64,000 bases of DNA. Origin: Promethearchaeota archaeon. Lineage in GTDB: Archaea > Asgardarchaeota > Lokiarchaeia > Sigyniarchaeales > SOKP01. Positions 758 to 9,310 of this stretch are shown here, in pieces. How positions within the stretch are numbered: position 1 is the stretch's first letter; each line of letters begins with the position of its first letter. Under the pieces are notes generated by a model. That model was not told the DNA's origin and ran no database searches. It worked only from the letters and a program-made list of their open reading frames with translations. Where the stretch lies: positions 1 through 64,000 of the forward strand of contig JAHPZE010000020.1 of NCBI GenBank assembly GCA_019058365.1. Reading direction: 5' to 3'. Both the position numbers and the translations under genes were made by a program.

Positions 758-843
758 CATACAAATTCCAATCTTACATTAAAATTGATAGGATTAATTG
801 CTTTTTATTTCGGATAATTTAAAAAAAAAAATTAAATTTAATC

Positions 844-977
844 TCAAATTTTTATTTTTGATTTGGTTATGATATGTTCGCATTTTAGACAGATTTAAAA
901 TAGCGGTAATCTTGCATTGTGCTAAAAAGTATGAACCTAGGATATCTGCTGGTAAAAAAGAAGCGATACTCTAGGAA
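844..977 (-). pseudogene. Decayed remnant of the 3' end of the K+ channel gene (copy of ~7608-7744)
   Basis: Direct nucleotide similarity, e.g. aatagcggtaatcttgcattgtgctaaaaa here vs aatagcggtaatcttgcatagtgctaaaaa at ~7663, with indels. Confidence 0.9.
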
Positions 978-1073
978 ATTTTGTTTTTACTCTCTGTTTT
1001 TATAATTGGAACTATTTTAATCTTTACAGTCCCGTTTAGTGTTAAAAAAACTAATGGGCTTCTAATGCAAAGT
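978..1073 (+). pseudogene. Remnant of the 5' end of the membrane alpha/beta-hydrolase gene (copy of ~9626-9721)
   Basis: tctctgtttttataattggaactattttaatctttacagtcccgtttagtgttaaaa is nearly identical to 9639-9695. Confidence 0.9.
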
Positions 1074-5592: not shown

Positions 5593-5916
5593 CAAATCAG
5601 AAAAATTGCTATAAATAAAATTATAAATAATTTGAATATTGAGATTATGTTTGAGAGTATATGTTTAACGCTTATAATTTAATAATTTTTCTTTAATATT
5701 TCGGTATAAGGAGCCAAATACGACATTTTTTAATTCGCTCCTTACTTCTTTACTATTTTAATAACCTAAATATAATATTTTTTTAATCCTCTAATTGCGT
5801 TTAAAGTAATCCATTTGCTTTCAGTATTTAATTCCAAATTTAAGCTTTAAATTTAAAATCCTTAGTTAATTTTATATAATTAAATAGAAATCAAAACGAT
5901 AAGGAGAGAAGACCGC

Positions 5917-6249
5917 ATGAATATGAAAGAAATTATGGAAAAGTGCCAGTTAACTGAAGAAGAACTGAAGGAATATTTGCACTTAACCAAAAATATTGAC
6001 CATAAAGAAGATCATAGTCGTGCTTATAGAACTATGATGAATCAAACGAGGAGAGAAATTTTAAAATTCATAGGAATTAATATAAAAACGTTCGAACAAA
6101 TAAGAAATGAATTTCAAGAAGAGGATGATCTATTAAGATATCATCTATCAATGTTAGAGCAATTATTTTACATCATGAATACAGAAAGTGGTTGGAAAGC
6201 GACCCCAAGGGGAATAGGGTTTTTGAATAATGCAATAATGGGAGATTAA
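5917..6249 (+). CDS. Winged-helix (ArsR-like) protein
   Basis: RREILKFI...LRYHLSMLE...WKATPRG wHTH pattern; AGGAGA RBS upstream. Confidence 0.7.
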   Translation: MNMKEIMEKCQLTEEELKEYLHLTKNIDHKEDHSRAYRTMMNQTRREILKFIGINIKTFEQIRNEFQEEDDLLRYHLSMLEQLFYIMNTESGWKATPRGIGFLNNAIMGD

Positions 6250-6286
6250 GTTTTAATGTTGTTAAAGGTTTAAATAGACAATTTTT

Positions 6287-7293
6287 TTATAAAATATTAC
6301 TAATCTTATCGATAAGGAAATCTGCTTTTTTTTCTATTTCATCTTTACTACTTGTAATTCGAATTCCAAATGCAGAACCTAATCCCGCATCAGAAACACC
6401 TACACTTATATTTATAGCTCTACTTAACAAGTCATTCGTTTTAGGTAACATACCTTTGTTATATTTTATTTTTGATCCTTTGTAAAAAGAACATGAAAAA
6501 GGACAGTTTTCTTCAGTTACAGTTTTTTTTACCTAAGAAATGTTCCATATTATTATAAACATGTCAGCCTGATTCTGCAATAGTTGTGGTTCCTAATTCA
6601 TCAGCTAATTTTGTAGCTTTTTCAGATGAGGGCAAAAAGAAAGTCAATAAAGTGCCTACATCTCCATTCTTGTCTAGAATTTTCCTAAATTCTATTTCTT
6701 CTATTGTAGACAAACGTTTTTTTAAATATTCTTTATTTTAATGGAGCTTTTCCCTAATATGTGGGGTTTTTTTGAGTTGAGTTCTAGCGACAGCAGCAGT
6801 TAATTCATTCATCCTGAAATTTAACCCTAAAACAGTTCTTTTTCCTTGTTCTACTCCTTGTCTTAAAGGCAAATGCCCTTAATCATGGATGGCAAAAGCT
6901 CTTTTATATAGATTTACATCATCAGTAACTACTATCCCACCATCACCGGCGATTATTGTTTCATAAACATTTAAACTAAAAGCCCCCATTTTACCAAACG
7001 TGCCAACAGATTTACCTTTATACATAGCTCCAAAAGCTTGAGCACAGTCTTCTATTAAGATGAGGTCATTGTCGTCAGCAATTTTAGAAATCTTATCTAA
7101 ATGACCTGGATTTCCTAGCATATGAACAAGCATAATTGCTTTCGTACGAGGAGTGATTTTTTGTTCAATATTTTCCGGATCAAGAGTTAAAGTTTTATCT
7201 ATCTCGCCTAATATTGGTATTGCACGAGCAAATATGATAGAAGTTATACTTGCGATGAATGTGTAACCGGGGACGATTACTTCATCTCCTGGT
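6287..7293 (-). pseudogene. DegT/DnrJ/EryC1/StrS sugar aminotransferase pseudogene
   Basis: Frame PGDEVIVPGYTFIAS...IEDCAQAFG...GDGG...GLNFRMNEL. N-terminus missing; in-frame TAA at 6879, a second TAA near 6739, a TGA near 6565 (SG*HVY), a +1 shift in an A8 run at ~6523-6530; the PLP lysine reads E (NVYET). Confidence 0.9.
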
Positions 7294-7600: not shown

Positions 7601-9310
7601 TTAAATTCTAATTTTAATTTTTGGCTTGGTTATAATATATTTACATTTTGGACAGATTTTATAATAGCGGTAATCTTGCATAGTGCTAAAAAAGTTTGAT
7701 CCAAGGATACCTGCTGGTAAAATAAAAAGGGATACTCCAAGAAAGGCTAAAGCTATTGTACAAAAACGACCGCCTGTAGTTATAGGATATACATCACCAA
7801 ATCCTGTAGTTGTAAATGTGATAATTCCCATCCACAAGGCAGTAGGGATATCTGAAAATTTAGTTGGTTGAGCACTTCTCTCCAGATAATAAATTAATGT
7901 AGAAGCGAATATAACAAAAATCCCGCAAAGTATGACTGTGACAAAAAACTCTCGTTTTGTTTCCTTAAAAATTAATCCCGCAACCCTAAATACATCAACA
8001 AAATGTCCAATTTTAAATATAACTAACATCCTGAATATTTGGAGGTATAAAACTAAAATGCGAATATGATTAAAAACAACCATAAGATATAGAGCGACGA
8101 GGATGATGATGTCAATAATAGCTAAAGGGCTTAAAACATATTTTATTCTCCCTCTAAGAGGATATTTGTATTTGTCTTTTTTTGAGGCAACGATACACCA
8201 GACTCGTAATAAATATTCAACGGTAAATACAATGATTGTAAATATTAACAAAGAATTTAATAGAGATCTAAGCCCTAATGATAATTCTGGGTTAGTTCCA
8301 ATCATTATTGCCAAAATATTTAGAGTTATAATGCTTGCAAAGAAAATAAATACAATCTTTTGTCCTAATTTAGTTGGAAATCTAAATTGAATTAACTTAT
8401 ATATTTTCTTTTTATAGTTCCCCTTGAAAGTAGTTTTTATGACTTTTTTTTTATCTTTCCTCTTTCTTAATTTTCTTATAAACTCAGATTTTGGAATAAT
8501 TTCTTGACAGTTTGGGCAAACTTCTGAGGATGGTTTCCTTTCTTCAATTTCCTCGAGAAATCCCGATACAATAACACTAGCAGGTAATAAGAATAATGTT
8601 ATCCCTATAAAGGATATGACTCCTGATACAATTTTTCCAAGTAGAGTTAATGGTACAATATCCCCATAACCTATTGTAAAGAGATTTATTGCTGTAAACC
8701 ACATAGAGCTAAAGAGATTTGTTATTTTATCAGGTTGGGCTTCATGTTCAGCAATATATATAAAAATAGAACCAAAAAACATCAAAATTAAAGAGAGCAT
8801 TAACGTGATTAATAATTCTTCCTTCTTGCGTTTTATCACCCCTAATATAATTTTAAAAGATCTAGAATAGCGACTGAATTTTAAAAATACAAATAAACGC
8901 AACAATCGTGCAATGTCCATCACTTCATAAACAAAAAGACCTATCAAAAATATTATGAATGAAATAGCACTTAGAAAATCAATTATCCCTGTCATACTTG
9001 TAATGTAATTCCATCGTTTTGAAATTGAATCCCTATTTATTACTTTTTGATTATAAGTCCAAATGCGGAGAAAATATTCTAACACAAATGTTAACCCAGT
9101 AATACACGATAATATTACAAAAATCACGTGGAAATGTTGCTGTAAATTTATATTAGTTTCTAATATTGCAATAGTACCATATATTAGACTTGATAAAATC
9201 AGCCAGATTGCTATTAGTTTTGCTGAAATAGTTCTTATTATAGGAAAACTCAAACTTTTAAGGATTTGCTCTTTAAAAATATGGCCCTCAATATTTTTAT
9301 TTGTTTCCAT
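7601..9310 (-). CDS. Tandem two-domain (2 x 6TM) voltage-gated-type K+ channel, each module followed by a CxxC knuckle
   Basis: Two pore signatures (TIGYGD, TTGFGD), two S2 EY-LRxW motifs, S4 ARLLRLFVFLKFSR and a weaker second S4, S6 LPASVIVSGF / LPAGILGSNF, CPNC and CPKC. Confidence 0.9.
   Translation of the reverse strand: METNKNIEGHIFKEQILKSLSFPIIRTISAKLIAIWLILSSLIYGTIAILETNINLQQHFHVIFVILSCITGLTFVLEYFLRIWTYNQKVINRDSISKRWNYITSMTGIIDFLSAISFIIFLIGLFVYEVMDIARLLRLFVFLKFSRYSRSFKIILGVIKRKKEELLITLMLSLILMFFGSIFIYIAEHEAQPDKITNLFSSMWFTAINLFTIGYGDIVPLTLLGKIVSGVISFIGITLFLLPASVIVSGFLEEIEERKPSSEVCPNCQEIIPKSEFIRKLRKRKDKKKVIKTTFKGNYKKKIYKLIQFRFPTKLGQKIVFIFFASIITLNILAIMIGTNPELSLGLRSLLNSLLIFTIIVFTVEYLLRVWCIVASKKDKYKYPLRGRIKYVLSPLAIIDIIILVALYLMVVFNHIRILVLYLQIFRMLVIFKIGHFVDVFRVAGLIFKETKREFFVTVILCGIFVIFASTLIYYLERSAQPTKFSDIPTALWMGIITFTTTGFGDVYPITTGGRFCTIALAFLGVSLFILPAGILGSNFFSTMQDYRYYKICPKCKYIITKPKIKIRI

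Follow-up and report, generated by a model that had tools for sequence, protein, structure and literature searches.

A two-module channel gene at positions 7601-9310

The window analyzed here is a stretch of 64,000 nucleotides from an archaeal contig. On its reverse strand, positions 7601-9310 form a single ORF of 569 aa that is free of stops and frameshifts (Table 1). A Pfam scan of the protein found two Ion_trans and two Ion_trans_2 stretches, and a Kv-like 6TM module (VIC superfamily, PF00520) of S1-S6 with a pore helix is present twice, the two copies sharing 28% identity over 275 residues (E 2e-33). The tail after S6 comprises ~25 residues including the CPxC motif. The initial annotation, made from the letters alone, had proposed two complete 6-TM K+ modules in one polypeptide, and this holds; the motifs that it had named (TIGYGD, TTGFGD, CPNC, CPKC and LPAGILGS) are all where it had placed them.

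Table 1. Coordinates of the channel gene, its elements and a nearby remnant in the window
Feature	Position	Strand	Basis or remark
Two-module (2x6TM) K+-channel subunit, 569 aa	7601..9310	-	ORF, Pfam, conservation, model
Module I, aa ~9-275: S1-S4, pore, CPxC knuckle	8486..9286	-	Profile match; model helices; Kv4.2 superposition
S4 of module I: R135, R138, K144, R147	8867..8917	-	Other canonical positions acidic or neutral; all 35 sequences have K144 and R147
Pore helix and filter I, aa 202-217	8660..8707	-	F205, N209, F211 at KcsA W68, T72, T74, then TIGYGD (aa 212-217)
S6 hinge of module I: LPAS instead of PAG	8561..8587	-	Alignment
CPNC knuckle I, aa 265-268	8507..8518	-	C265 and C268 invariant; beta-hairpin in model; probable half metal site
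Inter-module linker, aa 276-302	8405..8485	-	52% Lys/Arg; low model confidence; bridged by independent contigs
Module II, aa ~295-563: S1-S4, pore, CPxC knuckle	7622..8428	-	Pfam, sequence matches, model, profile match
S4 of module II: R427 and K433 only; invariant H436 in place of last Arg	8000..8068	-	Alignment
Pore helix and filter II, aa 491-506	7793..7840	-	T498 kept; T502 at KcsA V76 (TWIK1 T118-like); F504 for Tyr; TTGFGD aa 501-506
S6 hinge of module II: LPAGILGS, aa 531-538	7697..7720	-	Ancestral motif of prokaryotic single-module family
CPKC knuckle II, aa 553-556	7643..7654	-	C553 and C556 invariant
Remnant of second channel copy	838..978	-	83% identical to last 144 bases of channel gene

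A repeat comparison showed that, next to the channel remnant, 978-1071 matches the start of the hydrolase gene adjacent to the channel (89% identity), and that 7294-7601 matches the end of that gene (87%). From their sequence, these pieces are a hollowed-out tandem duplicate of the unit formed by channel and hydrolase, 83-89% identical to it and split by ~6.2 kb that holds other genes. The hydrolase gene adjoins the channel only in close congeners, and no conserved gene neighborhood of the channel was found beyond them. At 6879-7133 (reverse strand) lies an 84-aa DegT/DnrJ aminotransferase fragment, probably a pseudogene.

Two-module relatives and contigs from other samples

A first protein search retrieved 35 full-length two-module relatives with 41-93% identity, and a profile search together with a search using a divergent member added ~10 further, more divergent doubles, for ~45 distinct sequences overall. 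The length of the inter-module linker differs among them. A contig from a second sample covers positions 8195-8761, across the linker, with zero differences, and a contig of another study matches 8334-8525 without gaps, differing by 9 substitutions. A sequencing run that may itself be the source of this DNA (X1) was left out of this count. Stops reported within some genome matches fall outside ORFs of 550-590 aa, and no stop between the halves was seen, either in the ORF itself or among the ~45 two-module relatives.

Methanothrix (L006) does have two distinct genes of the single-module family in tandem, and the channel locus contains repeats, both of which might invite the idea of an assembly chimera or of a read-through of two neighboring single genes. 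Against this stand the ~45 intact doubles in independent assemblies, the mirrored trees of the two modules (see below) and the other-sample contigs over the linker; a conserved fusion refutes a chimera, and we give this explanation practically no weight. Because of the relatives and the bridging contigs, the two-module fusion is real and not an assembly error.

Structure model

In the AlphaFold monomer model (pLDDT 78.6, pTM 0.69), S1-S6 and a pore helix occur two times over, each CPxC motif forms a beta-hairpin and the linker is disordered at residues 280-297. When the whole chain was compared with solved structures by VIA-align, five TPC chains came top (Z 19-21, 444-472 residues, r.m.s.d. 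7-11 Å, 10-14% identity), and by module Kv4, KCNQ and Kv2 came next (r.m.s.d. 2.5-3.6 Å). Kv4.2 superposes on residues 7-259 with 2.5 Å over 241 residues, a fit covering sensor and pore that suggests a domain-swapped layout, and the K2P channel TWIK-2 fits across both pores (141 residues within residues 195-541, r.m.s.d. 2.6 Å). The whole-chain TPC fit and the TWIK-2 fit place the two pores side by side, an arrangement that comes from a monomer model and may copy known channels. A two-copy complex prediction (residues 146-565 with Zn) scored 0.15 and was used neither for nor against a dimer.

Selectivity filters and the interface between modules

Both modules carry the TxG(Y/F)G signature (TIGYG and TTGFG), and the filter threonine, the filter glycines and the S6 proline are invariant in both modules of the doubles. 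Among congeners the pores gave dN/dS values of 0.03-0.28 (module I) and 0.04-0.14 (module II). With these motifs the channel is likely to conduct K+, although selectivity is not readable from filter sequence (PMC11513965, PMC7576140), and the same dimer could instead be a cation channel with poor selectivity, or one that passes Na+ under certain conditions, with TWIK1-like dynamic selectivity, suited to marine sediment. A threonine precedes GFG in module II of 30/36 doubles versus 1/116 singles, and the residues supporting the filter from behind differ as well (F/M for W68, N for T72, F for T74, and E for D80 in 20/36). In TWIK1, Thr118 underlies Na+ permeability at low K+ or acid pH, and this property is transferable to TASK3 (PMC11513965, PMC11079055). 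The same threonine, however, leaves the selectivity of THIK1 unchanged, the filter threonine and both glycines are invariant, and a second-loop GFG is normal in K+-selective K2P channels. By analogy with these channels Na+ leak is the main rival to K+ permeation, with the equivalent of Thr502 not always sufficient for Na+ flux; we consider it improbable and prefer a K+ channel.

In Shaker, T439 and Y445 form an inter-subunit hydrogen bond (PMC3852034). Asn209 of module I and Phe504 of module II replace these Thr-Tyr bond partners, on the same branch, while Tyr215 of module I lies opposite Thr498 of module II and both are kept in 36/36 doubles. The Asn-I and Phe-II states co-occur (32 N/F, none N/Y), whereas same-module pairs are mismatched. 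A cross-module match of bond partners is what would be expected of a ring of alternating modules, I-II-I-II. An independent-pairs test of the N209/F504 covariation had two pairs only (p 0.5), as there are about two independent events and significance is out of reach. When the pore-helix columns were left out of a tree of the doubles, the earliest of these changes on it were Phe in module I (KcsA position 74) and Thr in module II (position 76); in a next step, on a single branch, module I gained Asn (position 72) together with Phe in module II (position 78).

Two chains would thus form one two-fold-symmetric pore with modules alternating I-II-I-II, its filter made up, in the way of K2P channels, of two TIGYG loops and two TTGFG loops, and the voltage-sensor domains would be attached in the domain-swapped Kv manner. 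We infer with high confidence that the channel is such a dimer. The dimeric pseudo-tetramer with asymmetric filters and sensors that had been predicted from the sequence therefore gains support from the comparison of S4 segments and filters, from the structural superposition and from the covariation.

Loss of charge in the voltage sensors

The initial annotation had described a charged first S4 and a less charged second S4. The inequality is real (Table 1), but the first S4 is depleted as well. At the every-third-residue positions of S4, module I has Arg or Lys at 4 of 7 and module II at 2, plus His; single-module relatives average 6.65 S4 charges, against 4.0 for module I and 2.0 for module II of the core family. 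The early-branching double P0271 has 6 and 5 S4 charges, and early-branching doubles in general retain 5-8 in at least one module. Across the doubles R135 and R138 are mostly conserved, and the S2 Glu and S3 Asp counter-charges are retained in both modules. A stepwise loss of S4 charge (from 6.7 to 4 and 2), together with remodeling of the filters, thus followed one origin.

Sensor I is the less conserved sensor, with a column identity of 0.54 versus 0.63 for sensor II and dN/dS among congeners of 0.19-0.46 versus 0.14-0.29; purifying selection acts on both pores and both sensors. That sensor II is nearly uncharged yet more conserved than sensor I points to a structural or chemical role that is kept. 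Having lost most of its gating charge, sensor II may serve as a scaffold or, through the invariant His436, a candidate pH-sensitive site, as an internal pH-sensitive element. Sensor I would confer at most shallow voltage dependence, and this combined with the charge loss of sensor II would make the protein a regulated background K+ conductance.

Few S4 charges are compatible with steep gating, since KvLm gates steeply with three (PMC2151563), and the protein might be a conventional depolarization-activated Kv channel in which the two module-I sensors suffice, a mirror image of plant TPC1 with its single active sensor. The invariance of K144 and R147, the conservation of R135 and R138 and the retained counter-charges agree with this possibility, but S4-I has acidic or neutral residues at its outer positions and Val or Ala in place of its central Arg, and the sensor in question is the one under weaker constraint. 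Conventional gating is accordingly judged a poor prospect, and weak voltage dependence with a background conductance is somewhat favored.

S6 hinges, CPxC motifs and linker

As had been noted from the sequence, a CxxC follows each module (CPNC 265-268 and CPKC 553-556). Among the shorter, single-module matches, 104/120 have a CxxC tail, and at the S6 hinge the singles have Pro in 116/116, Ala in 86 and Gly in 108. Module II carries the full family signature, LP(A/T)GI plus CPxC, and module I carries LPAS plus CPxC. Sequence comparison indicates that CPxC is inherited from the prokaryotic singles. The PAG hinge of module II had been likened to that of KCNQ-type channels; LPAGILGS is present, but the link to KCNQ is unsupported, as PAG is usual in singles, module I has PAS and no KCNQ tail domain was found. 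Since the LP(A/T)GI hinge and CxxC both occur already in singles, neither motif points to KCNQ. The two CPxC knuckles would probably come together around Zn2+, and the linker, 52% of it basic, is a probable contact site for anionic lipid.

In the relatives P0024, P0027, P0032 and P0034, module I is preceded by an additional N-terminal motif of the C2H2 zinc-finger type (CxxC followed by two His).

Origin of the two modules

Each half is closest to a widespread family of bacterial and archaeal single modules of ~265 aa, at 37-39% identity. These singles score higher (164 and 201 bits) than the other half of the same protein (111), Kv2.1 (89) or the modules of four-domain channels (49-60). In a mixture-model tree, modules I are monophyletic (98/96), modules II are monophyletic (97/92) and the branching of the two groups is mirrored: the modules were joined a single time, and from then on the halves evolved together. 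The sister grouping of I and II (support 46/77) is neither shown nor rejected; FastTree separated the two groups, a split that was absent under the mixture model. In the early-branching P0271 the S4 of each half ends in a His, which slightly favors duplication. The best explanation is a single origin from the common 6TM-CPxC channel of prokaryotes, either through duplication or through two paralogues fusing. The proposal of an independent duplication therefore holds in that an origin separate from TPCs is likely, given the filters and the 10-14% identity.

Methanothrix sp. carries the two adjoining but separate genes of the single-module family mentioned above (L006:4983-5789 and 5836-6675), the sole long contig match among the matches listed. 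The first encodes a charged S4 and a broken filter (TTVGDN, no GYG), and the pair is a candidate heteromer, or includes a candidate silent subunit, that could model the pre-fusion state.

Given the Asgard host, we considered whether the gene might be a relic that came down from the Asgard ancestor, either of the duplication that led to multi-domain channels of eukaryotes (TPC, Nav/Cav) or of the KCNQ lineage. The top matches among solved structures are KCNQ by sequence and TPC by whole-chain fold, and a tree joining the modules to eukaryotic Kv channels was not rejected by an AU test (p 0.39). KCNQ ranks first among solved structures, however, because the prokaryotic family has no solved structure, and although the AU test does not reject a link to eukaryotic Kv channels, nothing supports it. 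The trees contain no TPC or KCNQ sequence and no identified dinoflagellate or oomycete sequence, and the eukaryote-type tandems in them form no supported grouping with the Asgard modules. The scores of prokaryotic singles are roughly double that of Kv2.1, the 10-14% identity to TPCs and the GYG/GFG filters speak against a TPC connection, and the gene is confined to one Lokiarchaeia order, with 0/239 genomes of other classes carrying it. We regard a relic as very improbable; the gene is probably a parallel case and not an ancestor of eukaryotic channels.

Comparison with known channels

The prokaryotic singles (~265 aa, annotated as "ion transporter" or "voltage-gated potassium channel", PF00520) share the S6 motif, the CPxC tail and the acidic residues of S2 and S3. 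They differ in having one module, 6-7 S4 charges and a canonical TTVGYGD filter, compared with two modules, 4 + 2 charges and two altered filters in the Asgard gene. TPC1-3 share the 2x6TM chain, the expected dimer and unequal sensors, and are the best whole-chain structural match (Z 19-21), but the GYG and GFG filters and the low identity exclude the Asgard gene from membership. TPC filters are of the Na+/Ca2+ type of the Nav/Cav lineage and not GYG. KCNQ (Kv7) channels share PAG with the second S6 and are the best sequence match among solved structures; they are single-module homotetramers with a long cytosolic tail of calmodulin-binding and assembly helices, which the Asgard gene lacks, and the KCNQ tail family was not found in the Pfam scan of its protein.

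The 2x6TM architecture had been called a hallmark of eukaryotic TPCs, which is incomplete: GYG-type tandem Kv-like channels with unequal S4 charge occur in dinoflagellates, oomycetes and a chlorarachniophyte (PMC7576140). These resemble the Asgard gene in their 2x6TM chain, GYG-type filters, ~30% identity between repeats, unequal S4 segments and separate repeat clades, but they were eukaryotic only in the 2020 survey and have canonical TVGYG filters and no reported CPxC (PMC7576140). Shared ancestry with them is unlikely.

K2P channels (TWIK1, TWIK-2, TASK) and the viral channel Kpov (PMC13715775) share the two pore loops per chain and the GYG + GFG asymmetry. TWIK1 has a Thr before Gly as in Asgard module II, and the TWIK-2 pores superpose. 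K2P channels have four helices and no voltage sensors, however, while the Asgard channel has twelve helices, two S1-S4 domains and no cap. A shorter tandem form without voltage sensors is known from a giant virus (Kpov), and the same 2026 paper describes tandem K+ channels as absent from bacteria and K2P types as unknown from prokaryotes (PMC13715775). A literature search for two-repeat channels in Asgard archaea, Lokiarchaeota or prokaryotes, with most subscription journals outside it, found no report; the parts of an Asgard transporter survey available to us list other VIC homologues and no two-repeat form (PMC7997004). An ESM Atlas search returned single-module clusters only, which shows neither novelty nor absence.

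Host, distribution and cellular role

An Asgard host had been suspected, and the host genome has gelsolin and Snf7 matches over the cut-off and a weak profilin match. The named relatives belong to Promethearchaeota; three are labeled Hodarchaeota, Thorarchaeota or Hermodarchaeota at NCBI, labels that the genome search fails to confirm. The gene is present in 17/400 Asgard genomes, all of one order of Lokiarchaeia (Promethearchaeia): the host genome, 15/134 others of its family and 1/14 of a second family. Within the genus the distribution is patchy, with 7/53 congeners carrying the gene and 46/53 without it. The two-module channel was not found in 239 genomes of other Asgard classes, nor were single-module members of the CPxC family found in the 400 Asgard genomes with the queries used. 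A related-locus search of genome contigs gave no Asgard locus among the matches listed, which were single-module bacterial genes, and a search of sequencing runs listed no RNA run as carrying the gene. The other Ion_trans matches inspected in Asgard genomes were 2TM-RCK channels and one bacterial-Nav-like gene. In another Asgard family, L126 (G173:C96:1997-2659, reverse strand) is a single 6TM channel with a TVEGW filter like those of bacterial Nav/Cav channels.

The divergent doubles P0274 and P0269 have neighboring genes with homologues in the host genome. The earliest-branching double, P0275 (L106:749-2458), lies on a contig of 56% GC and has both filters destroyed, charged S4 segments and no CPxC.

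The channel gene is the only PF07885 locus of the host genome (completeness 100%), in which TrkH, Kup and KdpA were not found, and no TrkH/KtrB match was found in any of the 54 genomes of the genus (Kup and KdpA were searched in the host genome). With 46/53 congeners lacking the channel and no TrkH in the 54, another K+ route exists, and a role in uptake is weakly indicated. Its function may lie in membrane potential or K+ homeostasis, and would be accessory because most congeners lack the gene.

Implications for the evolution of multi-domain channels

Taken as a whole, the protein is reasonably probably a two-module, Kv-type K+ channel subunit of one Lokiarchaeia order, dimeric, weakly voltage-dependent and, given its TWIK1-like Thr502, perhaps leaky to Na+. 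A conserved archaeal family of this kind means that internal oligomerization of a 6TM channel occurred in a prokaryote also. Its members range from near-symmetric (P0271, P0269) to strongly asymmetric (the gene at 7601-9310), and the step from homotetramer to pseudo-tetramer, inferred but unobservable for TPC and Nav/Cav channels, is testable here on natural intermediates; the protein is small and lends itself to expression in E. coli and to cryo-EM. More tentatively, this may be the first two-pore-loop K+ channel from a prokaryote: a 2x6TM dimer derived from Kv channels, which converged on a K2P-like leak with K+/Na+ selectivity that can switch as in TWIK1, under the control of pH or Zn/redox and not of voltage. 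Its relatives would document stepwise symmetry breaking. Symmetry would then have been broken by unequal loss of sensor charge and by co-substitution of filter partners across the module interface.

Other multi-domain channels among the matches

Long bacterial matches of 520-860 aa were considered as doubles and ruled out, as each has a single pore with one to three additional sensors. Channels with one, two or three extra N-terminal S1-S4 domains and one pore (the P0053-P0104 group, P0284, P0417, P0421, P0291 and P0426) number many hundreds of sequences, are bacterial where named (including Betaproteobacteria) and often have an ASVGYG filter. P0268 (L109:160-4641; ENA ERZ17499354), like P0273 and P0283, is an intron-free ORF, of 1493 aa, with four complete 6TM modules. 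The filters are all TIGYG, the sequence is prokaryote-like Kv with no CNBD, and the contig is gene-sparse with ~59% GC; the host is probably eukaryotic. In the tree these modules fall near the Asgard modules, without support. P0340, P0411 (Diphylleia rotans), P0276 and P0348 are Kv-like proteins of eukaryotic type that contain two to four 6TM repeats, and Diphylleia rotans, with its multi-repeat Kv-like proteins, lies outside the SAR groups of the 2020 survey.
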